Below are positions 2,972-26,902 of a stretch of DNA of 64,000 bases, one piece after another. The notes under the pieces were generated by a model. It saw only the letters and a program-made list of their open reading frames with translations. It did not search any database and was not told where the DNA came from. This DNA comes from Chachezhania sediminis. Its GTDB lineage: Bacteria; Pseudomonadota; Alphaproteobacteria; Rhodobacterales; Rhodobacteraceae. The first letter of the stretch is position 1. Every line of letters begins with the position of its first letter. A program made the position numbers and the translations under genes. The DNA is taken from contig NZ_VOPH01000004.1 in the NCBI RefSeq assembly GCF_009765275.1, forward strand, positions 315,810 through 379,809, written 5' to 3'.

Positions 2972-3781
2972 TCAGCGGCCGCGATAGACAGGCCGGCGCT
3001 TTTCCATGAAGGATCTTGGGCCTTCGACCGCATCCTCGGTCGCCAGAACGCGGTCCATGGCCTCGGTCTCGCGCTGGAACCCGTCGTCGAAGGGGCGGCC
3101 GATGGCATCCAGCGCCGCCATCTTGATCTCGCGCACCGCGACGGGGCCGTTGGCGGCGATCCTGGCCGCGATCTTCAACGCGCGGGGCAGGACCTCCTCT
3201 GCCGGAACGACGGCATTGATCAGGCCCAGGGCGGCCATCCGTTCCGCCGGATAGCTGTCGCCGGTCAGCATCATCTCCATCGCCAGCGCGGGCGGCAGTT
3301 GCCGGGGCAGTCGGGCCAGCGCGCCGGCAAAGGGCATCAGGCCCAGCTTCGCCTCGGGCAGGCCGAAGGTCGCGTGCGGCGCGGCAATGCGGATGTCGGT
3401 GCCCAGCATCAGTTCGAACCCGCCGGCCAGGCAGTGCCCGTTGATCGCGGCGATCACCGGCTTGGTCAACGGCCGGCCCTTGAAGCTTGCCCGGAACACG
3501 GTGTCCCGGTCTGCGGCGATGCGGCGGTCCCATTTGGTTTCGGGCGCCCGCGCGCCCGTCAGCAGCGGCAGCATGGTTTCAAGATCGCCGCCCGCGCAGA
3601 AGGCGGCGGATCCCGCGCCGGTGACGATGCAGACGCGCAGTGCGTCGTCCGCCTCGAACGCGGCAAGGGCGTCGTCCATGCGGCAGACGACCTCCGGGTT
3701 CAGGGCATTGTGCCGGTCGGGCCGGTTGAAGGTGATCGTGGCGACGGGGCCGTCGGTTTCGTAAAGCAGCGGCAGGGTCAT
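2972..3781 (-). CDS. Enoyl-CoA hydratase/isomerase (crotonase family)
   Basis: Crotonase fold motifs (AFCAGGDL, INGHCLAGGFELML..DIRIAA..A.FGLPE). This is the last 269 aa of the long 2972..5305 ORF. Its start codon overlaps the upstream gene's stop (ATGA). Confidence 0.85.
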   Translation of the reverse strand: MTLPLLYETDGPVATITFNRPDRHNALNPEVVCRMDDALAAFEADDALRVCIVTGAGSAAFCAGGDLETMLPLLTGARAPETKWDRRIAADRDTVFRASFKGRPLTKPVIAAINGHCLAGGFELMLGTDIRIAAPHATFGLPEAKLGLMPFAGALARLPRQLPPALAMEMMLTGDSYPAERMAALGLINAVVPAEEVLPRALKIAARIAANGPVAVREIKMAALDAIGRPFDDGFQRETEAMDRVLATEDAVEGPRSFMEKRRPVYRGR

Positions 3782-11973: not shown

Positions 11974-12357
11974 ATGACCACTGCCGTAACGCGTTCCCGT
12001 TCCCTGCCGCTGTTCGAGAAATACGGCGGCATCCGGATGCTTCGGAACGTGATCATGGACTTCTACGACCGCGTCCTGGACAGCGACACGCTGGGTCCCT
12101 ATTTCGACGATGTCGACATGACCCGGCTGATCGACCACCAGACCAAGTTCTTCGCCATGATGATGGGCGGTCCGGTCGACTTTTCCGACGACCGCCTGGC
12201 CCGGGCCCACGCGTCGATGGCCATCACCCATGCCGAATTCGACGAGATCGCGGCCCTTCTGACCGAGACGCTGACCGCCGCCGGGCTGGAGCCCGTCGAT
12301 ATCGTCACCATCCTGACCTCCGTAGAACGGCGGCGGTCCGTCATCGTCAGGAGATAG
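11974..12357 (+). CDS. Group I truncated haemoglobin (trHbN-like, 2/2 globin)
   Basis: LFEKYGGIRMLRNVIMDFYDRVLDSDTLGPYFDDVDMTRLIDHQTKFFAMMMGGP... matches the trHbN pattern (YDKIGG...VVEDFY.RVL.D..L..FF...M..L...Q..FF....GGP), including the B10 Tyr and the distal/proximal region. 127 aa. Confidence 0.8.
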   Translation: MTTAVTRSRSLPLFEKYGGIRMLRNVIMDFYDRVLDSDTLGPYFDDVDMTRLIDHQTKFFAMMMGGPVDFSDDRLARAHASMAITHAEFDEIAALLTETLTAAGLEPVDIVTILTSVERRRSVIVRR

Positions 12358-12361
12358 GCCG

Positions 12362-13402
12362 ATGTTTCCCGAAACGCTCAGCACCCGCCTTCTGAAATCC
12401 ATCGGCGTCGGTCTCTGCCTCCTGGACAGTGCCAGCCACCGGATCCTCTTCTGCAACAGGACCTTTCAGGGCTGGTTCCCCGACGCCGCCCCGGAAAGCC
12501 CCGTGGCCGCGGTCGTCGAAAGCCTGGGTCCCGAGGCGATGGAAGACGCCATCGCAAGCGGCCAGGTCGAGATCCGCGCCAAGGTCAGGCGCCGCACCCT
12601 GATCCTCGAGGCGCGCGTCGACCGGGCCGAACATGACGGCCGCCAGATGCTGATCCTGGAATGCCAGAACGTCTCGCGCCTGCGCGAGACGGAAGCCATG
12701 ATCGACAGCTACGCCGCCATGGTCGACCGCCGCACCCGCGACCTGGAACGCGAGAAGGTGCAGGTCGAAAAGCTCCTGCTGAACATCATGCCGCGCACGG
12801 TTTATGAGGAATACCGCAGCTTCGGTTCCGTCGCGCCACGCCTGTTCGAACCGGTCTCGGTCCTGATGCTGGACTTCGTGGGCTTCACCGACATGGCGGC
12901 GGCCGCGGACCCGACGGTCACGGTGGCGGAACTGAACGACCTCTTCACCGCCTTCGACCGGATCGGCGAAATGCACGGCTGCGAGCGGATCAAGACCATC
13001 GGCGATTGTTACCTGGCGGTGGCGGGCCTGCCGCATCCGAACCCGGACCACATGCTGTCGGCCGCCCGCTGCGCGGCCAAGATGGTGCGCTATCTCGAAC
13101 ACCGTAATCGCACCCACCAGCACAAGTGGCAGGCCCGGATCGGCCTGGCCTCGGGCTCGGTCGTGGGCTCGGTCGTCGGGATCCAGAAATACATCTACGA
13201 CGTCTTCGGCCCGGCCGTGAACCTGGCCGCGCGACTTCAGGACATTTCCGAACCGATGGAAATCACCGTCAGCGGCCCCATGATCCGCGAGCTGGAGCAG
13301 GAATTCGACCTCGCCTGTCTCCGCACTGAAACCCTGCGCGGCTTCGGCGACACCCAGATCGCCACGATGTCGGACCGCGCGCCCACCGCGGCCGTCGCCT
13401 GA
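12362..13402 (+). CDS. Class III adenylate/guanylate cyclase with N-terminal PAS-like sensor domain
   Basis: C-terminal cyclase catalytic core (VSVLMLDFVGFT, KTIGDCYLAVAGLP, FGPAVNLAARL). The first about 110 aa are PAS-like, followed by a coiled-coil. The AGGAG Shine-Dalgarno overlaps the end of the globin gene; the start is 4 nt after the globin stop. Confidence 0.8.
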   Translation: MFPETLSTRLLKSIGVGLCLLDSASHRILFCNRTFQGWFPDAAPESPVAAVVESLGPEAMEDAIASGQVEIRAKVRRRTLILEARVDRAEHDGRQMLILECQNVSRLRETEAMIDSYAAMVDRRTRDLEREKVQVEKLLLNIMPRTVYEEYRSFGSVAPRLFEPVSVLMLDFVGFTDMAAAADPTVTVAELNDLFTAFDRIGEMHGCERIKTIGDCYLAVAGLPHPNPDHMLSAARCAAKMVRYLEHRNRTHQHKWQARIGLASGSVVGSVVGIQKYIYDVFGPAVNLAARLQDISEPMEITVSGPMIRELEQEFDLACLRTETLRGFGDTQIATMSDRAPTAAVA

Positions 13403-13669
13403 CCCGCGCGCGTCCTCGGCACGGGCCGGTCGACGCCTTGGCGGCGTGCCGCCTCCGGCGGGAGTATTTTCGAAGAGAAGAAGCCAGGGGCGCGCTCCTG
13501 CTTCTCCTCTTTCCCAAATACCTCCGGGGGAGTCGCGCCAGGGGCGCGGCGGGGGCAGAGCCCCCGAACCACGCAGGGACTGCTGCGTCGCTGGAAGTTT
13601 CCGCGCAGGGCGGGGTTTGCCCCGCCGTTTGCGCAAGACGCGGGCCGGCGCGGCGGGGCGTACCCCGCG

Positions 13670-14455
13670 CTAGGCGATCTTGGCCGGCGCCGTGGGGACC
13701 GGCATCGCCTCGACCTGGCGCAACATGTCGATGAAGCCCGCGACCTGGTGATCGGCGGTGGCCGCCCCTTTCTCGGCCGTGGCCAGGGACGCGTCGCCCA
13801 CCGTGCCGTCCGGGTTCAGGTCGGACGCGATCCAGCCGCGGCTAATCGGGCCCGTGGGCGGGATCGGCATCGTCTCGGCCGCGGAGCGGAAGTTGACCGC
13901 CTTCGACATGTCCACCGTGTCAGGGCGGAATTCCAGCATCAGCGAGGTTTCGACATCGCCGCCATGGATACCGAAGCGCAGCTCGTGCGGTGTGTACATG
14001 CCGTCCGGGTGGCCGAAATTGCCCCACTGGCATTTGACCGCCAGCATCCCGGCCTCGACCCGGAGTTCCCGCGACAGGATCGAGATCAGGTCCAGGTTGC
14101 CGCCATGGGAATTCGCTATGACGATCTTCCGGACGCCGGCGCGGGCGACGGAGAGGCCAATCTCGGTCCATGCCGCCAGCGCCGTCGCGGCCGAAAGCGT
14201 CAGCGTTCCGGCGGCCCACAGATGTTCGTTCGACTTGCCGACCGCCATGATCGGCAGGATCGCCAGGTCCAGGTCCGCCGGGCAGGTGGCGCGCAGGCGG
14301 TTCAGCATGCCTTCCGCGATCAGCGTGTCGGTCCCCACCGGCAGGTGCGGCCCGTGCTGTTCCACCGCCGCCGTCGGCAGGATCGCGATGGTCTTCATCG
14401 GGTCCACGGCACCGAATTCGGGCGCGCGGCGCGCGGTCCAGTCCAGGGTTCTCAT
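13670..14455 (-). CDS. Creatininase-family amidohydrolase
   Basis: Creatinine amidohydrolase fold motifs (ILPTAAVEQHGPHLPVGTD, VIANSHGGN, HGGDVETS). Last gene of the overlapping operon; ATGA overlap with the upstream gene. Confidence 0.75.
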   Translation of the reverse strand: MRTLDWTARRAPEFGAVDPMKTIAILPTAAVEQHGPHLPVGTDTLIAEGMLNRLRATCPADLDLAILPIMAVGKSNEHLWAAGTLTLSAATALAAWTEIGLSVARAGVRKIVIANSHGGNLDLISILSRELRVEAGMLAVKCQWGNFGHPDGMYTPHELRFGIHGGDVETSLMLEFRPDTVDMSKAVNFRSAAETMPIPPTGPISRGWIASDLNPDGTVGDASLATAEKGAATADHQVAGFIDMLRQVEAMPVPTAPAKIA

Positions 14456-15372
14456 GGGGCGGGCTCCGTCTTGTAGGTCGCGTCGAGGCGCATCTGAAGA
14501 TAGTCGGCGCCGGTCACGGGCGGGTATTTGGCCGTACCGGTGCCGGGCAGGGCGGTGATCACGCTGTCGGGGTTCGGGTCCAGGAAAAAGGCGATGGACC
14601 GCCGCGCACGTTTCGGCGGCAGCACCCGATGGGGCGTCGAGACATAGATGTCGTTGGTCCAGCGCATCAGGCAATCGGCGATGTTGATCACGAAGGCGCC
14701 CGGCACATGGGGTACATCCACCCAGCCCTGCCCGCGGGGGCGGACCTGAAGCCCGGCCTCGCCATCCGTCATCAGCAGCGTGATCGAGCCATAGTCGGTA
14801 TGGGCGCCGGCGCCGATCTCGTTCGCCGCTCCGGTGCCGGGCGGGTAGGAGAGCAGGCGCAGCGTGGCCAGCGGCGCCGTGAAATGGGGGGCGAAAAAGT
14901 CTTCCTCCAGCCCCAGGTCGCGGGCGATGGCGCGGTGGATATCGACCCCCAGCGTCAGCACGGCGTCGAAATAGGCGGTCAGCGTCGTCCGGAAACCCGG
15001 CAGGTCGGGCCACAGGTTCACCCCCCGAAACCGTTCGCCCGCCACGACCCGCGGATCGTCGGCCGCAAGGTCGAGGCCGATGTTGAACGCTTCCTTCCGG
15101 TCGACCTGGTCGGAGCTGTCGTCCAGGTTCTCGCCCCCCGGCCCGGTCCAGCCGCGGTTGTGGGGGTTGCGGGCGATCGACATTTGCTCCTTTGCCGCGA
15201 CCGGCAGGGCAAACAGCGCATCGCCGGCGGCAAAGGTTCTTTCGATCAGCGCGTCGGGGATGCCGTGGCCGGTCAGCAGGAAGAACCCGGTTTCGCGGCA
15301 GGCCTCGCCCAGGCACGTGGTAAAGACATCCGGGTCGGTGGCGAAGGTGCTCCAGTCCAGGACGGGGATCAT
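14452..15372 (-). CDS. 2OG-Fe(II) oxygenase (isopenicillin-N-synthase-like)
   Basis: H-x-D...H facial triad (AHTDYGSITLL...HRV) and RxS. Start at the internal Met MIPVLDW, preceded by GGAGG. Confidence 0.75.
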   Translation of the reverse strand: MIPVLDWSTFATDPDVFTTCLGEACRETGFFLLTGHGIPDALIERTFAAGDALFALPVAAKEQMSIARNPHNRGWTGPGGENLDDSSDQVDRKEAFNIGLDLAADDPRVVAGERFRGVNLWPDLPGFRTTLTAYFDAVLTLGVDIHRAIARDLGLEEDFFAPHFTAPLATLRLLSYPPGTGAANEIGAGAHTDYGSITLLMTDGEAGLQVRPRGQGWVDVPHVPGAFVINIADCLMRWTNDIYVSTPHRVLPPKRARRSIAFFLDPNPDSVITALPGTGTAKYPPVTGADYLQMRLDATYKTEPAP

Positions 15373-15995
15373 GCGGCGGCCTCCTTCATTGATCGCCGGC
15401 CGGCCAGGAACCTGTCCAGCGTGCGGACGACGCGGGTCAGGTGCCGCGCCCGGCTGTCGGGGGTGGAACTGTCCATCCGGTAATGCGCGGCAAAGGCGGT
15501 GCGGCAGCGTTTGGCACACAGGATCCGCAGACCCCGCAGCAGCGTCCGCCGGCCCGGCGCGCCGATCAGCCGTGTCAGCCACCAGCTGGCGCCGCAGGTC
15601 GTGAAGACCGCCAGCCGGGTGATATGGGTCAGGCCCGGGCGGATGTCGCTATGTTCGGCGTCCGGCATCAGGAAGGCGCTGCCCGGCAGCAGCACCCGGT
15701 CCAGCCAGCCCTTCAGCATCGCCGGCATCCCGTACCACCAGGTCGGATAGACGAAGATCAGCGTGTCGCACCATTCCAGCGCCTGGACATGGTCCAGCAC
15801 ATGGGCCTTGCCCAGCGAACAGGCCAGGTAGGCCGCGTTTTCCGGCCCGTCCATCACCGGGTCGAAGCCTTCGGCGTAAAGGTCCAGCACCTCGACTTCG
15901 GCGCCCGCGGCATCCAGCCGGGCCAGGACGGTGGCCTTGATCGCGGCCGTGAAACTCTCCGGCCTCGGATGGCAGTAGACAACAAGGGCGCGCAT
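15369..15995 (-). CDS. NAD(P)H dehydrogenase (quinone)-like flavoprotein (flavodoxin-like fold)
   Basis: MRALVVYCHPRPESF...FVYPTWWYGMPAMLKGWLDRV is typical of the NQO1/FMN-reductase-like family. It is the C-terminal 208 aa of the 15369..16469 ORF. Confidence 0.7.
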   Translation of the reverse strand: MRALVVYCHPRPESFTAAIKATVLARLDAAGAEVEVLDLYAEGFDPVMDGPENAAYLACSLGKAHVLDHVQALEWCDTLIFVYPTWWYGMPAMLKGWLDRVLLPGSAFLMPDAEHSDIRPGLTHITRLAVFTTCGASWWLTRLIGAPGRRTLLRGLRILCAKRCRTAFAAHYRMDSSTPDSRARHLTRVVRTLDRFLAGRRSMKEAAA

Positions 15996-15997
15996 GG

Positions 15998-16576
15998 TCA
16001 GAGCACTTCCATCTCGTGCCGGACCTTCGCCTGGAAGGCCGCGCGTTTTGCGTCGCTGGCGCGGTTCATGTCGTAAAGCGCCAGGTACTTCATCTTGTCG
16101 GGCCGGGTCGAATGCCAGACCGCGCGGGTCACCGACCGGCGCGGCGGATCGCCCGCGGTGAAGGCCCGCCAGCGGGTGCCGCCATAGGTGGTGACCGCCA
16201 CCAGCGTCTTGATGTTGTCGAGGTTGGGCACGACCTTGCCGTCTTCCAGCCGGAACGACACGCCCGGCAGGAAGACCTTGTCGAAGAACCCTTTCAGGAT
16301 CGCCGGATAGCCGAAGTTCCAGACCGGGAAGGACAGGATCAGCGCATCCGCCGCCCGCAGCCGTTCGACATAGCCCGCCACCCGCGTCTGGTTGGTCTGC
16401 ACGTCGTGATAGCTGCGCCGGTCCTCGGCCGACATCACCGGATCGAAGCCTTCGGCGTTCAGGTCGCAATCGTCGACCTCCCAGCCGCGGCCCTGCAGCG
16501 TTTCGACGATCGTCGTGTGCAGCGCCGCGCCGTAACTTTCCGGCACCGGGTGGGCAAAGAGAACAAGGGCTTTCAT
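15998..16576 (-). CDS. NAD(P)H dehydrogenase (quinone)-like flavoprotein, tandem paralogue
   Basis: MKALVLFAHPVPESY...FPVWNFGYPAILKGFFDKV is paralogous to the downstream gene. Confidence 0.7.
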   Translation of the reverse strand: MKALVLFAHPVPESYGAALHTTIVETLQGRGWEVDDCDLNAEGFDPVMSAEDRRSYHDVQTNQTRVAGYVERLRAADALILSFPVWNFGYPAILKGFFDKVFLPGVSFRLEDGKVVPNLDNIKTLVAVTTYGGTRWRAFTAGDPPRRSVTRAVWHSTRPDKMKYLALYDMNRASDAKRAAFQAKVRHEMEVL

Positions 16577-16586
16577 CTGGGGGCCC

Positions 16587-17987
16587 TCATGCCGGTTTCG
16601 TCATGTCGGGATAGTGGTACATGCCCGCATAGTCGAAATCCGGGTTGTCCCAGCCGATCATCTTGCCGGGGTTCAGAAGGCCCTTGGGATCCGCCTCGCG
16701 CTTGAAGGCCAGCTGGGTGTCGTCGGTCATCTGGCGGCCGCCTTCCTCCAGCGTGTAGCGGTGCGGGTTGAAGATCAGGGCGCCGGCCTCTTCATGCAGC
16801 GCGATGATCTCGTTCAGGCGCTCCTCGGTCGTGTATTTCACCAGCGTCAGCCCGGCAAAGGCCGCCTTGCCGCCGGACCGCATGACCTCCAGGTGCTGCA
16901 GGATCTCGGGCGAGAATTTCGCGCGGATCTTTTCCACCAGTTCCTTGTGGTCGGGGAAGGCATAGCGGACCTGAAGATAGGTGATCGACGGATCGACCTT
17001 CAGCGCGCGCAGGGTGGTGTGGTTCCAGCCGTATTCGAACACCTTGCCCGGCCCCTTGGGCCAGTCGTGATCGTCGGACCGGTAGATCATCCTGGCCGCC
17101 GGACGCCGGCCCAGGAAGGTCAGGAACCCGTCCATGTTCTGCGGCGCCACCATCAGGCCCACAAGGTGCGTGCCTTCGGTGACATGGGGCTTCACCCGCT
17201 GGAAATAGTCATGTGCGATGGGCGCCTCGTAGACCGACGCGATCTTCAGAAGGATCCCGTCCTCGTTCGCGATGTCGTCGGCAAAGCTCATCGCCGCGCC
17301 GAAATCGTCGAAGGCCACGAAGATGTCGGTCCAGTCATAGGCCGGGGCCAGCGGCATCTCCAGTTCGGTGATGATGCCGTTGGTGCCGTAGGCGTGGCTG
17401 ACGCGGGCCAGTTCCTCGCCCTTGAATTCCAGGATCCGTGGCTCGGCTTCCATCGTCACGACCCGCAGGCGGATGATGTTGCCCAGATCGCGCAGCGCGC
17501 CCCAGGTCACCGACCCTACGCCGCCCGATCCGCCCGCGATGAAACCGCCGATGGTCGCCGTCGCCCAGGTGGACGACACCATGCGCAGTTCCTGACCGGA
17601 ATGCGCGATTGTGGCGGCATCCAGATCCTTCAGCAGGCAGCCCGGCTCCACGACGACGCGACCCGGTGCGATTTCCTTCACTGCCGTCATGTGGCGCAGG
17701 TGCATGACGCAGCCGCCCCGCATCGGCATGGCCTGGCCATAGTTGCCCGTGCCGGCCCCCCGCGTGGTGACGGGGACGTCATGGGCATAGCAGACCTTCA
17801 GGATCTCGATCACCTCGGCCTCGGTCCGGGGGCGGACGACGAAATCCGCCTCCAGGTGGTCCATGTGTTCCTTCAGCACGGGCGAGTACCAGAAGAAGTC
17901 CCGGCTGGCGGCCTTGATGCCTGCGGGGCTCTGTTCGATGTCCAGATGGGCCAGCGCGGCCTTGGCTCCGGCGATATCGGCAGTCAT
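16587..17987 (-). CDS. FAD-linked oxidase (FAD_binding_4 / GlcD-type)
   Basis: FAD-binding PCMH domain (VVRPRTEAEVIEILKVCYAHDVPVTTRGAGTG), 466 aa. Confidence 0.75.
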   Translation of the reverse strand: MTADIAGAKAALAHLDIEQSPAGIKAASRDFFWYSPVLKEHMDHLEADFVVRPRTEAEVIEILKVCYAHDVPVTTRGAGTGNYGQAMPMRGGCVMHLRHMTAVKEIAPGRVVVEPGCLLKDLDAATIAHSGQELRMVSSTWATATIGGFIAGGSGGVGSVTWGALRDLGNIIRLRVVTMEAEPRILEFKGEELARVSHAYGTNGIITELEMPLAPAYDWTDIFVAFDDFGAAMSFADDIANEDGILLKIASVYEAPIAHDYFQRVKPHVTEGTHLVGLMVAPQNMDGFLTFLGRRPAARMIYRSDDHDWPKGPGKVFEYGWNHTTLRALKVDPSITYLQVRYAFPDHKELVEKIRAKFSPEILQHLEVMRSGGKAAFAGLTLVKYTTEERLNEIIALHEEAGALIFNPHRYTLEEGGRQMTDDTQLAFKREADPKGLLNPGKMIGWDNPDFDYAGMYHYPDMTKPA

Positions 17988-17994
17988 GTCGTCC

Positions 17995-19260
17995 TCAATT
18001 CGTCATCAGGTGGTCGAGTTCGGCGTAGTCGGGCAGGGTGCGGTCGATGGCCGTTCCCCTCCGCAGGACCACGCGGTCGGATTGCGGGCGGGCGAAGAAT
18101 TCGGTCCACGACCGCGCCCGGAACAGGATCAGATCGGCAGGGGCGTCGGGGCTGAGGTCCGGGGCATCGAACATGCAGGCGGCGGCCGGGGTCGTGGTGA
18201 AGGCCTTCACCCAGTCGGTGCCTGTATGGTCCAGATGGGCGATGCGGGTCGCCTCTCGCATCACCTCGACCATGTCCAGATCGCCATAGGCATAGAACGG
18301 ATCCCGCGTGTTGTCGGAGGCAAAGCTGACGGGGATGCCGCGCGCTTTCATCTCGTGCACCAGCGTCACGCCGCGGCGGCGGGGCGTGCGGCCCGGGGCG
18401 CGGTCCTGCAGGTAAAGGTTGCACATCGGCAGCGACACGGCGTTCAGACCGGCCTTGGCCACGATGTCGAGCGTGTCGAGCGCGCGCGCCTCCTCCTGCG
18501 TCGACACCGAACAGCAGTGGCCGACGACGACCGGCAGATCATAGCCCGTTTCCAGCACCGACTCGGCAATCATGCACAGCGTTTCGGACGTGGGGTCCAT
18601 CGTCTCGTCCGTGTGGAAGTCGACATGCAGGCCCATCCTGCCCGCCATCTCGAAGAACCCGTTCAGGATGCGGGGCAGGTCGGGGATCGGATAGGTCACC
18701 AGGCCCAGAACGCCGCCCGCCTGCTGGACCACATTGGCCAGGTCGTCGAAGGCCGCGTCGGTGCCGAAGCGGTCGCAGCTCATGAGGGACACAGCCTGAA
18801 GGTCGATCCTGCCGGCCCATTTCTCGCGCATCTCGACCACCACGGGCCAGCTGCGTTGATACTGGCCGTCGACGCTGTCGATATGGGTGCGGATCCGGGC
18901 GGTGCCGTGAGCATAGGCGCAGCGCAGGGCGAAATCCATCCGGGCGCCGACGTCCTCGGCCGTCCAGCGGGCATGGTCGGCGCGCACCGTCGACAGCGCA
19001 CCGTCGAAGGTGCCGTCGGGATTGGGGGACCGGGGCCAGATATGGCCCTTGTCCAGATGGGTGTGCATGTCGGTGAAGGTGGGCAGCACCATGGCGCCGC
19101 CCATGTCCACGTCCATGCCGCCGGGCGCTGCGATCTTGCCCGCGTCCACACCGATATCGGTGCGGACCAGGTCGCCCGGCTGGCCGATCAGACAGGCCGG
19201 AACAGATACGTTGCGCAGGGTGAAGCGCCCGGAAGGCAGGGTCTTGAAGTCCATGTTCAT
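17995..19260 (-). CDS. Amidohydrolase, cytosine-deaminase (CodA) family
   Basis: Metal-binding HxH (TFTDMHTHLD), later His/Asp ligands and DNTRDPF. This is the C-terminal 421 aa of the 17995..20175 ORF; the start ATGA overlaps the permease stop. Confidence 0.75.
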   Translation of the reverse strand: MNMDFKTLPSGRFTLRNVSVPACLIGQPGDLVRTDIGVDAGKIAAPGGMDVDMGGAMVLPTFTDMHTHLDKGHIWPRSPNPDGTFDGALSTVRADHARWTAEDVGARMDFALRCAYAHGTARIRTHIDSVDGQYQRSWPVVVEMREKWAGRIDLQAVSLMSCDRFGTDAAFDDLANVVQQAGGVLGLVTYPIPDLPRILNGFFEMAGRMGLHVDFHTDETMDPTSETLCMIAESVLETGYDLPVVVGHCCSVSTQEEARALDTLDIVAKAGLNAVSLPMCNLYLQDRAPGRTPRRRGVTLVHEMKARGIPVSFASDNTRDPFYAYGDLDMVEVMREATRIAHLDHTGTDWVKAFTTTPAAACMFDAPDLSPDAPADLILFRARSWTEFFARPQSDRVVLRRGTAIDRTLPDYAELDHLMTN

Positions 19261-20117
19261 TCTCGTTTCAGGGCGCTTTCGTGCCAGCGGTACAGCGCCA
19301 GATAGGAAATCGCGCTCATCAGCGCGAAGATGACCACGCCCATGACCGAAATCAGGATCAGCGCGGCGTAAAGACGACCGAAGTTGAAGCGATAGGACGC
19401 CTCCAGCAGGGTCGAGGCAAGGCCAAGGCCCGTGCCCGCCCGGCCGATCACGAATTCGGCCACCACGGCGCCGATCAGCGCCAGGCCCCCCGCGATCTTC
19501 AGCCCGCCCAGGAAGAAGGGCAGCGCCGACGGCGCAGAAAGGTAGCGCAGCCGCTGCCATTTCGTGGCCCCGTAAATCGTGAAAAGGTCGCTCAGGTTGT
19601 GATCCGCCGACTTCAGCCCGATGGTCGTATTCGACAGGATCGGAAAGAAGGCGACGATCCAGGCGCACAGCAACGCGGCGACAAAGGCGTTTTCCACGTA
19701 GATCTGGATCAGCGGCGCCACCGCCACGACCGGCGTCACCTGCAGGATCACGGCGTAGGGAAAGAACGACATTTCCGCCCATTTCGACTGGGTGAAGGCC
19801 ACGGCCAGCCCCACGCCGCCGATCACCGCCAGCGTCAGCGCCAGCACCGTCAGGCGGCCGGTCTTGATCATTGCGGGCCACAGGATCGACCAGTCCTCGA
19901 CCATCTTCTGGGCCACCAGTGTCGGTCCGGGCAGGATATAGTGCGGGATTTCCCCGATGGTCACGTAAAGGTGCCAGGCCAGGATCGTCAGGACCATGAC
20001 CAGCGACGGCAGCGTCCAGCGGGCGATTTTCATCACCCGTTCGGTGCGCGCGCGGGCGGCTTCCTCGGCGTCCAGTTCCGGGTGCACCACGGGGGCGCCG
20101 TCTTGGGCCAGGGTCAT
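19257..20117 (-). CDS. ABC transporter permease (NitT/TauT family)
   Basis: 6-TM permease with an EAA-like loop. Start at MTLAQDGAP overlaps the ATPase stop. Confidence 0.75.
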   Translation of the reverse strand: MTLAQDGAPVVHPELDAEEAARARTERVMKIARWTLPSLVMVLTILAWHLYVTIGEIPHYILPGPTLVAQKMVEDWSILWPAMIKTGRLTVLALTLAVIGGVGLAVAFTQSKWAEMSFFPYAVILQVTPVVAVAPLIQIYVENAFVAALLCAWIVAFFPILSNTTIGLKSADHNLSDLFTIYGATKWQRLRYLSAPSALPFFLGGLKIAGGLALIGAVVAEFVIGRAGTGLGLASTLLEASYRFNFGRLYAALILISVMGVVIFALMSAISYLALYRWHESALKRE

Positions 20118-20899
20118 GCCGCTTCTCCCATCGCTTCGTGCAGCGCCTCGGAGGCCTGCCGGCAATAGGCGGCATATTCGGCCGAGGTACGGAAGGCCTC
20201 GTCGCGCGGATAGGGCGCGTCGACCTGCAATTCGCGGATCACCCGGCCCGGGCGGGCGGCCATGACGACGATCCGGTCCGACAGGAACACGGATTCAAAG
20301 ACCGAATGGGTCACGAAGATCACCGTGCAGTTCACCCGCTGGCGCAGTTCCAGAAGGTCGTTGTTCAGCTTGTGCCGCGTGATTTCGTCAAGCGCCGCAA
20401 AGGGTTCGTCCATCAGGATCAGCCGCGGCTTGGTCACCAGTGCGCGGGCGATGGACACGCGCATCTTCATCCCGCCCGACAGTTCGCGCGGGAAGGCGCG
20501 CTGGAATTTTTCCAACCCCACCAGCTTCAGCGCCTCCAGCACGTCGTCCCTGACCTCGGCATAGGGTTTGCCGCGCAGGCGGAACGGCAGCCAGACATTG
20601 TCGGCCACCCGCGCCCAGGGCATCAGCGTCGGTTCCTGAAAGACGACGCCCAGGTCGTCCTTGGTCTGACCGCCGGCCCAGCGGATGGATCCGGACGTGG
20701 GCTGCATCAGCGACGAGATCAGCCGCAGCGCAGTGGACTTGCCGCAACCCGACGGCCCAAGCAGCGAGATGAAGTCGCCCTCGTTCACGTCCAGGTTCAT
20801 GTCCTTCAGTGCCACGACATTGCCGCGGAATGTCTTTTCGACATGGCTCATGTGCAGCACCGGGTCGCGTTGCCCCAGCGGTTTGCGTTCCTTGGCCAT
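20114..20899 (-). CDS. ABC transporter ATP-binding protein (NitT/TauT family)
   Basis: Walker A GPSGCGKST, signature LSGGMKMRVSIARAL, Walker B LILMDEPFAALD. Start at MAKERKP follows a GGAGG Shine-Dalgarno. Confidence 0.85.
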   Translation of the reverse strand: MAKERKPLGQRDPVLHMSHVEKTFRGNVVALKDMNLDVNEGDFISLLGPSGCGKSTALRLISSLMQPTSGSIRWAGGQTKDDLGVVFQEPTLMPWARVADNVWLPFRLRGKPYAEVRDDVLEALKLVGLEKFQRAFPRELSGGMKMRVSIARALVTKPRLILMDEPFAALDEITRHKLNNDLLELRQRVNCTVIFVTHSVFESVFLSDRIVVMAARPGRVIRELQVDAPYPRDEAFRTSAEYAAYCRQASEALHEAMGEAA

Positions 20900-20950
20900 A
20901 GCTACCTCCGAAAGGGGGCGGCGGGACATGTCGCCCCGCCGCAGGAACGT

Positions 20951-21943
20951 TTACTTCTTCAGGTCCATGCCGACCTGAGCGTTGACGAACTGGTTGTCAT
21001 AGGCCGACTTCCAGTCGATATCGGCGTCGGTCACCTTGGCGTCGACCATCTTGTCGAAGAAATCCTTCACCTTCTCGTCCGTCATCGCGCCGATGCCCAT
21101 CGTCTCGGCGTCGCCGGAATCGACGATGCCTTCGGACAGCATCTTCTCGATCGCGTAGTTGATCTTGTCCTGCGTCATCTCCGGATTTTCGGCCATGATC
21201 ATCGCATCGGCGGCCGAATGATCGCCGTAAAGATAGTTGTACCACCCCTTGATCGACCCATCGACGAAGCACTGCACCTGCTCGGGCTTATTGGCGATGG
21301 TGTCGGCCATCGTCTCGATCGTGGTGGCATAGGTGGAATAGCCCGCATCGGCGATCAGGAACACGGCCGGGGTGAATCCGCCTTCCTTTTCAACCAGATA
21401 GGGTTCCGACGACAGGTAGCCCTGCATGCCCTTGTTGTCGTCCGCCAGGAAGGGGCCCGGGTTGAACGTGTAGGGCTGGCGCTGTTCGGCGGTGAAGCCG
21501 TAGGCGGCCATCATCCACTGGTAATAGGACTGATAGCCGTTGTCGCCGATCAGCAGGGTCAGGTTCTTCAGGTCCTCGAAGGTTTCGGCCTTGCCCGGGT
21601 GGGCCAGGATCACCTGCGGGTGCTTCTGGAAGATCGCGGCGACCGACACGACCGGCACGCCTTCCTTGACGGCGTTGAACGCCTGAAGCAGGTCGCCTCC
21701 CATGTGATAGTCGATCTTGCCGGCCAGCATCATGGCGCGGTTGTTCACCTGCGGGCCGCCCTGCACGATGGACACGTCCAGACCGCAGTCCTTGTAGGTG
21801 CCGTCGGCGACCGACTGATAGAACCCGCCATGTTCGGCCTGGGCCAGCCAGTTGGTGCCGAAGACGGCCTTGGGCAGGTCCTGGGCGGCCGCGGGTACCG
21901 CGGCCAGCGCCACCAGGGCGCCGGCGAGAGCTGTGGATTTCAT
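20951..21943 (-). CDS. ABC transporter substrate-binding protein (NMT1/THI5-like)
   Basis: Signal peptide MKSTALAGALVALAAVPAAAQ plus NMT1/THI5-type periplasmic fold. A GGAGGT Shine-Dalgarno precedes the start. Confidence 0.75.
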   Translation of the reverse strand: MKSTALAGALVALAAVPAAAQDLPKAVFGTNWLAQAEHGGFYQSVADGTYKDCGLDVSIVQGGPQVNNRAMMLAGKIDYHMGGDLLQAFNAVKEGVPVVSVAAIFQKHPQVILAHPGKAETFEDLKNLTLLIGDNGYQSYYQWMMAAYGFTAEQRQPYTFNPGPFLADDNKGMQGYLSSEPYLVEKEGGFTPAVFLIADAGYSTYATTIETMADTIANKPEQVQCFVDGSIKGWYNYLYGDHSAADAMIMAENPEMTQDKINYAIEKMLSEGIVDSGDAETMGIGAMTDEKVKDFFDKMVDAKVTDADIDWKSAYDNQFVNAQVGMDLKK

Positions 21944-22136
21944 TGGTAACCTCCGTGTTGGATCTTTGTTTCTTGAAGGCAATCCCGCCCGGCGCGGGTC
22001 ATGCCGTTCAGCCCTGCCGATTGTGTCGAGGCAGATGAAGACAGGGCCATGGGGGCGCGGGACCGGACCCGCGCCTGCCGGATTTCGCCACGGCAGGCGG
22101 TCGCGTTAACCTTTTCGGGCAACCGCCTGTCGTGCA

Positions 22137-23132
22137 TCATTTTTTTCCGTAATTCGCGCCAAGGCGCATCTGGATGTAATCGTGGCCAGTCATCGGATCG
22201 TACTTGCCGTCGGGACCGGCCAGCACGGTGTCCCTGTTGGCCTGGGCGAAGAAAGCCATGGAATAGCGCGGGCCCAGATATTCGTCGGACTTGGGCATCC
22301 GCACCCGGTGCAGCGTCGACTGCAGCCTGTCGTCGGACCAGCGCATCAGCATGTCGCCGATATTGCAGGTGATCACGCCCTCCAGCGGCGGCACGTCGGT
22401 CCAGGCGATGGCGCGGCCCCGGCTGTCCTTGAACGGGCACAGTTGCAGGCCGCCCTGACCGCCCTTCTGGTGCAACAGCGTCAGGCAGTCGAAATCGGTA
22501 TGGGCACCCGACCGCCAGCCCCTGAAATCCTCGGGCGTGGCGTCTTCCATTCCCAGATAGTGCAGCAGCCGCAGGGTGGACTGGTACTGGTCCGATTGCG
22601 GATCGTGGCCATCGATGAAGGTGTCGGGATGAAAGCCCAGCCGGTCGCCGAAACAGGACAGGACCTTCATCGCCAGGGCCCAGTTCTGACGTTCGAAGGC
22701 CAGCATGGTGGCGCGAAAGCCAGCCAGGTCCCCTTCGGACGGCCAGAGGCCCCGCATCCGCGGCAGGGTGATCTGGAAGCTTTCCTTGCGGTCCGCCGTC
22801 CCCGTCGACGGGCGCACCTGCGCCATGTATTCCCAGCCCGCATTGGTGCCGGGGCGCAGGGGCATGGTGTCCTTCAGATCCGCGGGCAGATCGAAGAAGG
22901 CCGCCGACAGGGCGAAGGCCTCGTCGATCAGGGCCTGCGGGATGCCGTGGTTTTCCAGCTGGAAGAAACCGATGCCGGTCGCGGCCTGCCACAGGTCTTC
23001 GGTGATCTCCGCCTTGCGGGCGTGGAAGTCGGACATGTCGATCCGGGGGATGTCGCGGTCGACCTCCTCGCCGTAACTGCCCATCAGGGCTTCCTTTTCC
23101 AGCTCCGCCAGTTTCGGCGTGTCGCTCGTCAT
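22137..23132 (-). CDS. 2OG-Fe(II) oxygenase (isopenicillin-N-synthase-like), second copy
   Basis: AHTDFDCLTLL...HRV triad. Start at MTSDTPK follows GGAGGAG. Confidence 0.75.
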   Translation of the reverse strand: MTSDTPKLAELEKEALMGSYGEEVDRDIPRIDMSDFHARKAEITEDLWQAATGIGFFQLENHGIPQALIDEAFALSAAFFDLPADLKDTMPLRPGTNAGWEYMAQVRPSTGTADRKESFQITLPRMRGLWPSEGDLAGFRATMLAFERQNWALAMKVLSCFGDRLGFHPDTFIDGHDPQSDQYQSTLRLLHYLGMEDATPEDFRGWRSGAHTDFDCLTLLHQKGGQGGLQLCPFKDSRGRAIAWTDVPPLEGVITCNIGDMLMRWSDDRLQSTLHRVRMPKSDEYLGPRYSMAFFAQANRDTVLAGPDGKYDPMTGHDYIQMRLGANYGKK

Positions 23133-23665
23133 CTCAGGTCTCCTCCTGCAGATGGGGAGCAATGACCGACGCCCTTCCGGTGGCGCTGACTGCTTCTACT
23201 CCGGTTGGTGATCCGGTCGTGCATGGGCGGTCTGCGCCGCGTCCGGCCGCAGCGGCAGGCCGACGGGCGATGGTCCCGCATGCCCGTGCTTCCAATGTGG
23301 CAAGCGCGGACCCGGGCCCTGCCGGAACACTGCGCTCCGGCCGTGTCACCCGTCATCCGCTGGGCAATATGCGCTGTGAACATGTTGCCGCCGGACGGGG
23401 TTGCACCGTTGTTGCTGTCGAGCATGCGTCGCCTCACCACAATAGCCCAGTCGCTGCCGCTTTCGCAGGCAACCGTCGGGAATGGATGAGCAATGACCGA
23501 GCCTGGGGCCCTTCCGCTTCTACTCGCCCCGAACCTATGCCGCAGTGCGGAAAGGCGGCCAGAACTGTCGTGACATGAAAGGCTGTGCTGCGAATAGTTG
23601 CACAAAAAATGCACATATTCCAAGTATCGATGATGAAACCCGCAGCGCCGCGTGTGCGGATCCGG

Positions 23666-24265
23666 TCAGATCCGCAGCAGCACCTTGCGCAGGAATCCCC
23701 CCAGCGCGCCGCGCACGTCACCGGGTGTCAGCGACGGGGCGGGGGCAGTCCGGTCCAGCGCCAGGCCGGTGCGGAAGGCCAGGAACTTGCTGGCCTTGTA
23801 GGCGGGCTTGTTCATCGGCCGCCCCGCAAGATCCGCCAACCGCGTCAGGTTCCGGCCCAGCTGCACGTGATTGTTGCCGCAAAGCTCGGTATAGCGCGCG
23901 GCAAAGCTTTCCGACCGCGCGGCATGCAGCGCGAATTCCACCGCCAGCAGGCACCAGTCCTGGCTTTCGCCTTCCAGGTCATAGACGCGGATCATCCGGT
24001 TCAGTGCCTCGTTGAAGCTGCTGCCGGCGGTGGCGGAACGTCCGCGCGCGATCTCCTGCGCCAGGTGGTCTTCCAGCAGCAGGAAGAAGACGGCTTCCTT
24101 GCTGTCGAAGTTCGAATAGAAGGCGCCCTTGGTATAGCCGGCGGTTTCGGCGATCACATCGACCGATGCCCCGGCAAAACCGTGCTGGGCAAAACAGGTG
24201 CGCGCCGCGGCAATCAGCTTGCCGCGTGTCGCCTCGCGGGCTTTTTCTCGGGACAATCGGGTCAT
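23666..24265 (-). CDS. TetR-family transcriptional regulator
   Basis: N-terminal TetR HTH (FAQHGFAGASVDVIAETAGYTKGAFYSNF). Confidence 0.8.
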   Translation of the reverse strand: MTRLSREKAREATRGKLIAAARTCFAQHGFAGASVDVIAETAGYTKGAFYSNFDSKEAVFFLLLEDHLAQEIARGRSATAGSSFNEALNRMIRVYDLEGESQDWCLLAVEFALHAARSESFAARYTELCGNNHVQLGRNLTRLADLAGRPMNKPAYKASKFLAFRTGLALDRTAPAPSLTPGDVRGALGGFLRKVLLRI

Positions 24266-24665: not shown

Positions 24666-25991
24666 TCAGACCGTCGCATCCCAGGGGCAGGCGGCGCGGC
24701 GTTCGGCATCGGCGCGCTGGCTGGCGGCTTCCCAGTCGGCGGTGTCGGTGATCGCGTCGTTCGACAGGGGGCCGAAGATCCTGGACACGTCGACGCCGTT
24801 GCGCATGGGCAGCGCGGTTTCTTCCGCGTCGGCCAAGTTCCGGATCGCCTCGCGCAGCATGCGGCGGAACTTGATGATGCCGACATCGGTCTTGCCCAGA
24901 TGCTCCTGCGTGCGGTCCTGGATCGTCCCCATGCTTTCCACCGCCCACTGGTCGTGCACGTTGATGTCCAGCCCCATGCCCGTATAGGTCTGCGTCGCCT
25001 GTTCCGCCGGGTCGAAGTTATAGTTGTTCGACTTGTTCTTCAGCGGCGCATAGTCGGGCAACGTGTGCTCCTTCAGCCGCTGTTCGCGCATCAGATCCTT
25101 GTTCACCGGTTTGGCAAAGCTGGTAAACATCGAATACCAATAGCAATTTTCATCGTCGATGGGCACGTGCCACTGGGTGATCGTCATCTCGCGGCTCATG
25201 GGAATGCAGATCGCTTCGGGGAAGATCTGGTTCGTGACGCGGACATGGGTCATGCCGTTTTCCATGTGCCGCAGGGCCGTCAGCTTCATGCCGAAATCGG
25301 TTTCCTCCACCCGGATCTCCGGGCGGGGATAGTCCCGCAGAAGCTGGGTCATGGGGATGTTGGTTTCGCCCGCGCTGTCGCGGAACTGCTTGCCATAGCT
25401 GTCTTTCGGGTCCTCGTCTTCCAGAAAGCGGTGCAGGAAGGATGCGTGCGCCGGGTCGATCCCCACTTCCAGCGCCTGAAGCCAGTTGCACTGCCACAGG
25501 CCCTTGAAGGCAAAGACATGGGTGTCGGGCGCGCGGAAACAGTCGAAATTCGGAAAGCTGGGCGGTTCGCCCGGGCCCATATAGGCGAAGACGATGCCGT
25601 TTCGTTCTTCAACGGGATAGGATACCGTCTTGATCTGCTTGTACATTTCCGAACCTTCGGGTTCCCCGGGCTGTTCCACGCACTGGCCGTTGCGGTCGAA
25701 GTGCCAGCCGTGGAAGGGGCAGCGCAGGCCGTTGTCCTCGCGCCGGCCGAAACACAGGTCGGCGCCCCGGTGCGGGCAGTGGCGGCCGATCAGGCCCAGA
25801 TTGCCGTCGTTGTCGCGAAACAGGACCAGCCGTTCCCCCAACAGCGTGACCGGCACCACGGGCCTTTCGCCGGCCAGTTCGTCGACAAGTGCCGCCGGCT
25901 GCCAATAGCGGCGCAGGACCTCTCCGGCCGCCGTGCCGGGGCCGACCCGGGTGATCGTGTCGTTCAATTCCTGGCTGATCATCGCGGTCAT
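24666..25991 (-). CDS. Rieske [2Fe-2S] non-haem-iron oxygenase alpha subunit (GbcA/CntA/demethylase-like)
   Basis: Rieske motif CPHRGADL...CPFHGWHF and mononuclear Fe site D..H....H (DPAHASFLHRF). 441 aa. Confidence 0.8.
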   Translation of the reverse strand: MTAMISQELNDTITRVGPGTAAGEVLRRYWQPAALVDELAGERPVVPVTLLGERLVLFRDNDGNLGLIGRHCPHRGADLCFGRREDNGLRCPFHGWHFDRNGQCVEQPGEPEGSEMYKQIKTVSYPVEERNGIVFAYMGPGEPPSFPNFDCFRAPDTHVFAFKGLWQCNWLQALEVGIDPAHASFLHRFLEDEDPKDSYGKQFRDSAGETNIPMTQLLRDYPRPEIRVEETDFGMKLTALRHMENGMTHVRVTNQIFPEAICIPMSREMTITQWHVPIDDENCYWYSMFTSFAKPVNKDLMREQRLKEHTLPDYAPLKNKSNNYNFDPAEQATQTYTGMGLDINVHDQWAVESMGTIQDRTQEHLGKTDVGIIKFRRMLREAIRNLADAEETALPMRNGVDVSRIFGPLSNDAITDTADWEAASQRADAERRAACPWDATV

Positions 25992-26040
25992 CTCCCTGGG
26001 GCGGCGTGGTGGGCCGAGCTTGGTTGCCGTTGGCTGGGAC

Positions 26041-26055
26041 GTGCGTTATACGCAC
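26041..26055. promoter_or_regulatory. 15-bp perfect palindrome GTGCGT-TAT-ACGCAC in the Rieske/IclR divergent promoter region (candidate IclR operator)
   Basis: Seen directly in sequence between the two divergent genes. Confidence 0.4.
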
Positions 26056-26125
26056 ATATGTTGATATAGTGAAATGCTACCGTGCTGGCGCGACCTGTCA
26101 AGGGTGGCCGGCGGAAAGGGACCGC

Positions 26126-26902
26126 ATGCAGGACCGGAACATCGCCACGACCTTGTTGAAGGGGGTTGAGGTGTTGCGCGCCTTTCGCGGCACCGACGGG
26201 GACGTGACGCAGGCCGACCTGGCCCGACGGACAGGTCTGGACCGGGCGACGGTGCGACGGCTGAGCCTGACGCTGGTTCAGGCGGGGCTGCTGGCCGCGA
26301 CCGACCGCGGCTATCGCCTGGCGCCGGGGGTGCTGACGCTGGCGGGCGCCTTCCTGCGCGCCAATGCGGTGGGCCATTCCGTCCAGCCGGTCCTGAACGA
26401 TTGTGCGACCCGCATGGGGGGCGAGGTCAGTCTGGCGGTCCGCGACGGGATGCAGGCGATCTATGTCGCGCAGTCCGCCACGGCCGAGGCGCGGGTCAGC
26501 TTCGGCTTCACCATCGGCAGCACGCTTCCGCTGCTGCCCACCGCCGTGGGGCGGATGCTGCTGGCCGGTCTTCCAGAGGGCCAGCGCGCCGACCTGATCG
26601 CCGCCGCGCCGCTGGAGGCGATGACGGCCGACACCTGCCTGGACCGCGACGCGATTGCGAAGGCGGTGGAGGCGGCGATCTACGGCGGCGTCTCTGTCGT
26701 GCGCGGCGAATACGAAAGCGGCATCGCCGGGCTGGCCGTGCCCGTCGGTGCGACCGGGCCGGAACGGCGGGCGCGGGCGGTGCTTGGCACCTCGCTGCCG
26801 TTGGCGCTGCCGGACCTGATCGACCGGCAGGCCAAGGCGACCGTGGCGATGCAGATGGCCGCGGCCCGCCTGGCGGAACTGCCGGCGCTGGGGCAGTGGT
26901 AA
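26126..26902 (+). CDS. IclR-family transcriptional regulator
   Basis: N-terminal IclR HTH (LLKGVEVLRAF...VTQADLARRTGLDRATVRRL) and C-terminal effector domain. ATG at 26126. Confidence 0.8.
   Translation: MQDRNIATTLLKGVEVLRAFRGTDGDVTQADLARRTGLDRATVRRLSLTLVQAGLLAATDRGYRLAPGVLTLAGAFLRANAVGHSVQPVLNDCATRMGGEVSLAVRDGMQAIYVAQSATAEARVSFGFTIGSTLPLLPTAVGRMLLAGLPEGQRADLIAAAPLEAMTADTCLDRDAIAKAVEAAIYGGVSVVRGEYESGIAGLAVPVGATGPERRARAVLGTSLPLALPDLIDRQAKATVAMQMAAARLAELPALGQW

Follow-up and report, generated by a model that had tools for sequence, protein, structure and literature searches.

We analyzed a 64,000-nucleotide stretch of the Chachezhania sediminis genome (contig NZ_VOPH01000004.1, positions 315,810 to 379,809 of the forward strand; referred to here as the window) that carries nine consecutive co-directional open reading frames (ORFs) with a strong third-position GC bias on its minus strand, at positions 13670-21943. 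They encode, in this order, a solute-binding protein (SBP) of the NMT1/THI5 family (g1), an ABC ATPase (g2), an ABC permease (g3), a CodA-like amidohydrolase (g4; COD in our gene shorthand), a flavin adenine dinucleotide (FAD) enzyme (g5), two flavodoxin-like proteins (g6 and g7; NQ1 and NQ2), a 2-oxoglutarate (2OG)/Fe(II) oxygenase (g8; OG1), and a creatininase-like hydrolase (g9; CRE). Judged from its sequence, this operon is the ortholog of a cluster that yielded an oxygenase of "folate catabolism". We favor pterins as its substrate class and consider it rather probable that it serves the uptake and O2-dependent breakdown of the pteridine half of folate and related cofactors. Coordinates below are those of the window and of its minus strand unless stated otherwise.

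The nine minus-strand genes and the domains ascribed to them in a sequence-only reading of this DNA were all confirmed by Pfam and NCBIfam profile searches of the operon proteins. The gene set is not uncharacterized: the FAD enzyme is an ortholog of a solved protein, and a CodA-like protein has a published pterin deaminase activity. The remark of the sequence-only reading that no textbook pathway matches was borne out, and "a pterin," one entry on its list of candidates, has become the best-supported substrate class.

The FAD enzyme and the Hoeflea cluster

The FAD enzyme g5 (16587-17987) carries an FAD_binding_4 domain, belongs to the VAO/PCMH fold, and is orthologous to the protein in PDB entries 6V42 and 6V43. 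Indeed, phmmer aligned residues 9-454 of g5 with residues 9-453 of 6V42 (E value of 3e-171, 57% identity over the full length), and 6V42 was also the top Foldseek match, the next-best PDB matches being at most 22% identical. The AlphaFold model of g5 came from a shallow, low-diversity alignment (pLDDT of 66) and served only for the retrieval of the PDB entry title by Foldseek, with no active-site inference. Entry 6V42, released in December 2020, is entitled [quoted passage not shown] and its 445 aligned residues are an exact substring of protein A9D9D1 of Hoeflea phototrophica DFL-43.

The Hoeflea locus (L085) consists of genes for a creatininase homolog and a RidA-family protein, divergent from a run of genes for an NMT1-type SBP, an ABC ATPase, a permease, an amidohydrolase, the FAD enzyme, and two Flavodoxin_2 proteins. 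All of these genes except RidA (n = 8) matched the window operon with 52 to 67% identity, and the window is collinear with the Hoeflea cluster from the SBP gene to NQ2. However, the window inserts a 2OG oxygenase gene between NQ2 and the creatininase homolog, and the latter gene stands at the 3' end of the operon, whereas that of Hoeflea lies divergently upstream. Additionally, the window is devoid of RidA and has a riboswitch-controlled 2OG oxygenase gene and a TetR gene upstream of the operon, unlike the Hoeflea cluster.

A CodA-like enzyme with a candidate pterin pocket

The CodA-like protein g4 (17995-19260) is a binuclear/mononuclear metal amidohydrolase (Amidohydro_3) that scored 593 bits against the NCBIfam model NF005759, "cytosine deaminase" (cutoff of 403), but only 104 to 157 bits against the models covering E. 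coli-type CodA (cutoffs of 438 to 483). Its nearest solved relatives are CodA-family enzymes with about 25 to 30% identity. In an alignment with E. coli CodA and Klebsiella 4R7W, the equivalents of the HxH motif, His214, Glu217, His246, and Asp313 were retained, and residues H66, H68, H216, E219, H248, and D316 of g4 were invariant in the 84 orthologs that were aligned for pocket-residue counts. The cytosine-binding Gln156 of CodA is replaced by Ser in g4 and by Gly, Ala, Pro, or Ser across the orthologs, in which it is never Gln, and the position of Asp314 is occupied by Asn in 84/84. These replacements argue against cytosine or another pyrimidine, which the sequence-only reading had entertained as a substrate, and g4 is best described as a predicted deaminase with a non-cytosine pocket. 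Because Gln156 is never present in the family captured by NF005759, an equivalog model, the name of this model is doubtful and probably represents a systematic misannotation across hundreds of genomes.

A function for such a protein has been described in Agrobacterium radiobacter K84, where the cytosine deaminase-like (CDA-like) Arad_3529 deaminates pterins and folate, as stated in passages of two papers that both cite Fan et al. 2013 (PMC12391406, PMC9513972). Like this cytosine-deaminase-like amidohydrolase, g4 is a CodA-like protein whose pocket does not appear to be made for cytosine. Chromosomes of the Rhizobium rhizogenes group bear the same cluster with a 437-amino-acid CodA-like gene, and g4 shares about 50% identity with the proteins of the Rhizobium clusters. 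The work of Fan et al. (J Am Chem Soc, 2013) reportedly found that Arad_3529 deaminates many pterins, with 6-formylpterin, pterin-6-carboxylate, and pterin as its best substrates, and is said to have read the genome context as "an undescribed pterin degradation pathway" of which Arad_3529 is the first step. We propose that g4 is likewise a pterin deaminase, which would convert pterin to lumazine.

L013, a locus of an uncultured Rhodobacteraceae genome, encodes a further CodA-like amidohydrolase, distantly related to g4 (29% identity), at positions 3028-4092, just upstream of the riboswitch-oxygenase module described below.

Conservation of the cluster in Alphaproteobacteria

Searched against one genome per species, the FAD protein was encoded at more than 587 loci, of which the best 80 were taken for comparison; 61 of these, with sufficient flank on both sides, were used for gene-presence counts. 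The order SBP, ATPase, permease, CodA-like protein, FAD enzyme, two flavodoxin-like proteins, optional 2OG oxygenase, and creatininase-like protein recurred among the 61 loci. Many members of the Rhodobacterales and Hyphomicrobiales have kept it, on chromosomes as well as on plasmids, the latter including those of Pseudooceanicola, Paroceanicella, Palleronia, and Rhizobium. Such an arrangement is far beyond chance. The comparative synteny suggested in the sequence-only reading thus showed that the cluster recurs across alphaproteobacteria, with at least 587 species-level genome matches; it is found in at least several hundred species, notably marine Roseobacter-group bacteria and rhizobia.

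The CodA-like and FAD enzyme genes were present in all loci (61/61 each), and the transporter, SBP included, in 60/61. The first flavodoxin-like gene (NQ1) occurred in 57/61 loci, the creatininase-like gene in 56/61, the second flavodoxin-like gene (NQ2) in 49/61, and a RidA-family gene in 48/61. The in-operon 2OG oxygenase gene was found in 36/61 loci and the upstream one in only 3/61. Based on these counts, the conserved core consists of the transporter, the deaminase-like hydrolase, the FAD enzyme, one or more flavodoxin-like reductases, the creatininase-fold hydrolase, and RidA. Clustering of the flanking ORFs gave no further conserved neighbor or regulator beyond RidA; in the window, the genes for the TetR and IclR regulators and for the Rieske oxygenase fall outside the conserved set and are local.

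No match to the RidA family was obtained anywhere in the 64-kb window. In related loci, the RidA gene is usually divergent from the SBP gene (e.g., positions 5498-5848 of L013 and 5580-5930 of L024), a place taken in the window (21944-22136) by a 193-nt spacer with a strong hairpin. By this comparison, the window cluster is a version in which the optional 2OG oxygenase is present and RidA has been lost.

Some variants of the cluster are worth recording. In the Rhizobium rhizogenes group (L086-L090, 1345-1875 and 10314-11498), the cluster has a single flavodoxin-like gene and, in addition, a Flavin_Reduct (HpaC/RutF-like) gene, a LysR regulator gene, and a gene for an S-adenosylmethionine-dependent methyltransferase. 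Loci assigned to a Marinobacter metagenome-assembled genome (L009) and to Granulosicoccus (L040) carry clusters 73 to 79% identical to the Rhodobacterales version, which may reflect mis-binning or recent horizontal transfer. In Rhizobium leguminosarum UPM791, the products of the adjacent pRlvA genes RLV_169 and RLV_170 ("cytosine deaminase like" and "FAD-binding dehydrogenase") were detected in pea but not in lentil bacteroids (PMC7950203). These two genes possibly belong to the same cluster, which would imply a host-derived inducer.

Organization of the operon

Four of the gene junctions are ATGA start/stop overlaps (ATPase/permease, permease/CodA-like, NQ2/2OG oxygenase, and 2OG oxygenase/creatininase), and the remaining gaps measure 51 nt (21 nt if an alternative ATPase start is used), 7, 10, and 2 nt, so that 7 of the 8 junctions have a gap of at most 10 nt. 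The sequence-only reading had given the same range of gaps, 2 to 51 nt, and five ATGA overlaps; the miscounted fifth is likely the GCATGA in which the FAD gene stops but the next gene does not start. The domains and the tight junctions therefore indicate one transcription unit. Together with the gene order kept across taxa, the co-directional arrangement and the overlapping or very short junctions indicate that the nine genes form a single predicted operon, and the earlier view of them as one tight unit was upheld by the overlaps and the conserved order. The probable 3' end of the transcript is a GC-rich hairpin at 13603-13669, directly after the g9 stop codon (minimum free energy of -49.3 kcal/mol, z score of -2.9), and the gene beyond it is a convergent adenylate/guanylate cyclase gene (12362-13402, plus strand). 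A scan for consensus promoters and terminators did no better on the window than on shuffled sequence and is uninformative in this GC-rich genome. When the regions in front of the SBP gene were searched for a shared operator or RNA motif, no 9-mer was common to more than 7 of 69 loci.

The SBP g1 (20951-21943; PF09084, E value of 4e-18) has the signal peptide MKSTALAGALVALAAVPAAAQD, an ATG preceded by the ribosome-binding site (RBS) GGAGG, and 60% identity with the Hoeflea cluster SBP. We propose that it is the pterin- or lumazine-binding component of the transporter. The ATPase g2 (20114-20899, alternative start at 20929; PF00005 [ABC_tran], E value of 3e-33) is 67% identical to its Hoeflea ortholog, and the start of the permease gene g3 (19257-20117; PF00528 [BPD_transp_1]) overlaps the g2 stop.

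The two flavodoxin-like NAD(P)H-dependent oxidoreductases belong to PF02525 (Flavodoxin_2). The NQO/KefF-like g6 (paralog 1, 15998-16576; E value of 7e-30) is 52% identical to Hoeflea NQ1, and g7 (paralog 2, 15369-15995; E value of 7e-33) is 55% identical to Hoeflea NQ2 and 35% identical to g6.

The oxygenase g8 (14452-15372) is an IPNS/PaIPNS-like 2OG/Fe(II) enzyme with the domains PF14226 (DIOX_N) and PF03171 (2OG-FeII_Oxy). In alignment, it shows the motifs HTD...H(RV)...RRS, i.e., the HxD...H iron triad followed by the RxS 2OG-binding motif. The nearest solved relatives of g8 and of the upstream oxygenase (u1) are EFE-like and PaIPNS proteins without assigned function. The Hoeflea reference cluster lacks a counterpart of g8, which is an accessory member of the cluster.

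The last gene product, g9 (13670-14455), is a creatininase-fold metal amidohydrolase (PF02633, E value of 4e-67) that scored only 80 bits against TIGR04448, the model for true creatininase (cutoff of 235). It keeps the equivalents of Glu34, His36, Asp45, His120, His178, and Glu183, comprising the ligands of the binuclear metal center and the catalytic His178, while the creatinine-binding residues are replaced (Y121G, E122G, and W174F). g9 can therefore be described as a predicted cyclic-amide or formamide hydrolase with a substrate other than creatinine, for which we propose a hydrolytic ring opening or a deformylation. Creatinine or N-methylhydantoin, the leading idea of the sequence-only reading, is not supported by this score and these replacements, and nothing points to the methylated substrate that it had suggested.

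A xanthine riboswitch module upstream of the operon

A second 2OG oxygenase gene (u1, 22137-23132) and a TetR gene (23666-24265) lie upstream of the operon on the minus strand, as had been noted from the sequence. u1 has the Pfam domains DIOX_N and 2OG-FeII_Oxy, is 38% identical to g8, and shows the iron triad and the 2OG-binding motif as HTD...H(RV)...RYS. It is preceded by a xanthine riboswitch aptamer (NMT1 RNA, RF03054) at 23152-23206, which scored 46.9 bits with the Rfam covariance model (gathering score of 36 bits; E value of 2.9e-7 for the whole window). This aptamer ends 20 nt before the u1 ATG, with the RBS GGAGGAG in between, and has the conserved junction nucleotides GAGUAGAAGC and CAUUGCUC. 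The same placement next to the RBS was seen in L013, L024, L091, L094, L095, and L119. In the window, a weaker, xanthine-aptamer-like copy lies in tandem 277 nt further upstream (23483-23530); it scored 29.2 bits, below the gathering score, and keeps both cores. Tandem aptamers were also found upstream of homologous oxygenases in three metagenomic loci (L091, L119, and L155), and in L119 both are above the gathering score, with 57 and 48 bits. Between the aptamers, the window (23206-23483) and L091 (3560-3740) share the sequence "TTGTGGTGAGGCGACGC[A/G]TGCTCG," which resembles an RBS and a start codon. From this start, an Arg-rich frame of 98 codons runs in the window to an ATGA overlap with the u1 start; it may be a leader ORF or merely non-coding sequence.

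In the genome loci, an aptamer was found only where the upstream oxygenase gene occurs, and Rfam searches found none upstream of the SBP gene in loci without that gene. In L013 and L024, a RidA gene in the opposite orientation stands between the upstream oxygenase gene and the operon. In the window, a hairpin with a stem of about 16 pairs follows the u1 stop (22089-22134), within the 193-nt spacer between u1 and the SBP gene (fold of 21990-22139, z score of -2.4 for the region); it may set the operon apart from the u1 transcript. Because of the co-occurrence of aptamer and oxygenase gene, the intervening RidA gene, and this hairpin, we regard the riboswitch-oxygenase pair as a separate module and not as the first gene of the operon.

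This module adjoins the cluster in at least four different arrangements. It lies upstream of the SBP gene in the window, L091, L013, and L024, downstream of the creatininase gene in L094 and L102, and beside rearranged soil versions of the cluster in L136, L138, L141, and L170. Elsewhere, its usual companions are guaA, guanine-deaminase-like genes, and an NMT1 transporter that is paralogous and likewise riboswitch-controlled. A common context of u1 homologs (L092-L169, e.g., 5031-9093 of L122) begins with a riboswitch and a paralogous ABC transporter of the NMT1 type; a second riboswitch, the oxygenase, and another 2OG oxygenase follow, often with an ArsC/Spx-like gene, a 463-amino-acid guanine-deaminase-like amidohydrolase, a CDA-fold deaminase, and guaA.

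Other representatives of the NMT1 RNA class bind xanthine and urate and switch translation off, and the genes most commonly found downstream of these RNAs encode IPNS-like dioxygenases and NMT1-type transporters (Yu & Breaker, RNA 2020; PMC7373994). The window resembles this regulon in that the aptamer lies directly upstream of a pcbC/IPNS-like dioxygenase gene, followed by an NMT1-type ABC transporter. It differs in that the riboswitch of the cluster-related loci governs the dioxygenase only and not the operon, and in that the main text of Yu & Breaker makes no mention of tandem aptamers such as those in the window, L091, L119, and L155. The places of the module beside the cluster and its usual company elsewhere suggest that the cluster and the oxidized-purine pool are functionally tied. 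Such a tie is chemically reasonable, since a published lumazine pathway of another bacterium ends in xanthine (PMC12391406).

Other neighboring genes

The TetR-family regulator gene (PF00440) is a neighbor only: it was found beside the cluster in the window alone and was not conserved with it in the 61 loci. Further upstream, a gene for a Rieske oxygenase with a LigXa-like C-terminal domain (24666-25991) is divergent from an IclR regulator gene (26006-26902, plus strand). The oxygenase DNA is about 80% identical to genes that other Rhodobacterales plasmids carry without linkage to the cluster. Xanthine riboswitches have been reported near several classes of genes, Rieske oxygenases included; the Rieske gene of the window has no preceding aptamer. 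On the other side of the operon, and convergent with it, a bacterial globin gene directly precedes the cyclase gene (11974-13402 for the two, plus strand), and the two may form an O2- or NO-responsive signaling pair.

Discussion

We propose the following pathway for a pterin-degrading operon. The NMT1-type SBP and the ABC transporter would take up a pterin such as 6-formylpterin, pterin-6-carboxylate, or pterin itself, and the CodA-like enzyme would strip its 2-amino group to give the corresponding lumazine. The FAD oxygenase would then oxygenate the lumazine, while g6 and g7 would supply reducing equivalents or hold quinonoid aminopyrimidine products reduced. The creatininase-fold hydrolase would open the resulting lactam in the pyrazine ring, and RidA, present in most genomes and missing in the window, would then hydrolyze an imine. 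In this scheme, g8 would be an optional extra hydroxylase, and u1 would be a separate unit that is turned off by xanthine or urate through the riboswitch, which suggests that the pathway supplies the oxidized-purine pool or is coordinated with it. For the single steps after deamination, our confidence is much below that for the pterin class itself.

The scheme resembles in function only the Rut pathway of E. coli (RutA-F), which degrades uracil and which likewise combines, in one operon, a flavin oxygenase acting on a ureide ring, one or more NAD(P)H flavin reductases, an amide hydrolase, and a RidA-family protein. The families are unrelated: RutA is a luciferase-like flavin mononucleotide enzyme and RutB an isochorismatase-fold hydrolase, whereas the window oxygenase has the VAO fold and FAD.

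Several points weigh against pterins as the substrate class. The link to folate comes from the title of a PDB entry alone, and literature searches with 6V42/6V43, folate or pterin catabolism, and Hoeflea phototrophica gave no paper describing the reaction of the flavin oxygenase. g4 is probably orthologous to Arad_3529, the two being likened by description. Chemical reasoning alone underlies the roles proposed here for RidA, the 2OG oxygenase, the creatininase-like hydrolase, and the flavodoxin-like proteins. Most cluster loci have no riboswitch, and genes for the folate-specific carboxypeptidase G and AbgAB did not recur beside the cluster when the flanking ORFs were clustered. Finally, a 2025 paper describes another, molybdenum-dependent lumazine pathway and calls pteridine degradation otherwise unknown.

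The main alternative is an oxidized purine or analogue (xanthine, urate, 8-oxoguanine, or isoguanine), the CodA-like enzyme deaminating an aminopurine and the oxygenases hydroxylating the purine ring; we consider it unlikely, yet clearly ahead of the readings that follow. Isoguanine is a further substrate of E. coli CodA, the operon has a xanthine/urate riboswitch immediately upstream, and the homologs of u1 usually stand beside guanine-deaminase-like genes, a CDA-fold deaminase gene, and guaA. Moreover, pcbC-like dioxygenases, NMT1-type SBPs, Rieske oxygenases, and amidohydrolases are the typical riboswitch genes of Yu & Breaker, who argued for purine oxidation (PMC7373994). However, the riboswitch controls only the separate upstream oxygenase and is absent from loci without that gene, and the oppositely oriented RidA gene parts this oxygenase from the operon in L013 and L024. 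Furthermore, the operon SBP is just 24% identical to the riboswitch-linked NMT1 SBP, and the orthologous FAD enzyme is labeled as one of folate catabolism.

Residues and profile scores led us to reject creatinine, cytosine, and a thiamin pyrimidine as substrates. The first of these readings, in which creatinine or N-methylhydantoin (a cyclic guanidino compound or ureide) would be deaminated by the CodA-like enzyme, oxidized at C5 by the oxygenases, and opened at its five-membered ring by the creatininase homolog, draws on the creatininase and CodA family memberships and on the fact that CodA enzymes are known as creatinine deaminases. We regard it as very improbable: besides the low TIGR04448 score of g9 and its loss of Tyr121, Glu122, and Trp174, g4 has no equivalents of Gln156 and Asp314, the genes for a hydantoinase, a carbamoylsarcosine amidase, and a sarcosine oxidase are not conserved nearby, and the FAD ortholog is assigned to folate catabolism.

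Marginally less probable still is the salvage or catabolism of a thiamin pyrimidine, namely, 4-amino-5-hydroxymethyl-2-methylpyrimidine (HMP), its aminomethyl analogue (AmMP), or formylaminopyrimidine, by means of a ThiY-like SBP, a creatininase-fold deformylase, and a 4-aminopyrimidine deaminase. The SBP does belong to the NMT1/THI5 family, its weak PDB matches include THI5 and a ThiY-like protein, and the creatininase family takes in formamide hydrolases such as ArfB. However, the similarity to THI5 and ThiY is marginal (E values of 1e-3 to 3e-7 over about 90 to 110 residues), Rfam searches found no thiamin pyrophosphate riboswitch in the window, tenA and thiD are outside the conserved set, and Yu & Breaker distinguished NMT1 genes of this kind from thiamin genes (PMC7373994).

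The least probable reading of all is that genes of unrelated function came together here by chance or that the nine are transcribed as several independent units, for which one could cite the uninformative promoter scan. Against it stand the four start/stop overlaps, the gaps of at most 10 nt at 7 of the 8 junctions, and a gene order shared by two alphaproteobacterial orders; this synteny excludes a chance array.

Returning to pterins, one of the closest described systems is cluster I of Cupriavidus sp. LA-1, which encodes a lumazine dehydrogenase (molybdenum), a 6,7-dihydroxylumazine isomerase, a xanthine-8-carboxylate decarboxylase, and a pterin deaminase (Commun Biol 2025). Like the route that we propose, it begins with a pterin deaminase giving lumazines and has a metal amidohydrolase-type enzyme acting on the oxidized pyrazine ring, and it finally yields xanthine, the ligand of the riboswitch beside the window operon. 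In contrast, oxidation in the window would make use of the FAD oxygenase and the 2OG oxygenase(s) with O2. The molybdenum-dependent lumazine-to-xanthine pathway itself was rejected for the window, as no molybdenum hydroxylase, amidohydrolase_2 isomerase, or prenylated flavin mononucleotide-dependent decarboxylase was found among the nine operon proteins or the scanned neighbors.

What was already known are one enzyme with a deposited structure and a stated role and another family member with a published activity, and the locus is one more copy of the cluster and not a new system. Our literature search found no publication of the cluster as a pathway. Since one structure with a stated role and one published activity exist, the annotation is otherwise generic, and the pathway lies outside the textbooks, we consider the cluster to be only partly characterized. 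Its public annotation reads "cytosine deaminase," "FAD-binding oxidoreductase," and "creatininase family protein," and these database names gave no functional hint. Tying the operon to a solved "folate catabolism" enzyme and to a pterin deaminase provides a concrete, testable substrate hypothesis. The probable misannotation by NF005759 and the link between the xanthine riboswitch regulon and pteridine metabolism are new points.

All cells make folate and other pterins, which are sensitive to light. The fate of the pteridine ring in seawater and soil is poorly understood, and one molybdenum-dependent route was published only in 2025. The cluster might represent a molybdenum-independent, O2-dependent route of pteridine ring degradation that is wired to the oxidized-purine pool via xanthine riboswitches, some of them in tandem; we put this forward tentatively, as a possible though doubtful extension of the pterin reading. 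If it is true, part of the NMT1-RNA "purine oxidation" regulon would really concern pteridine breakdown yielding xanthine-like products.

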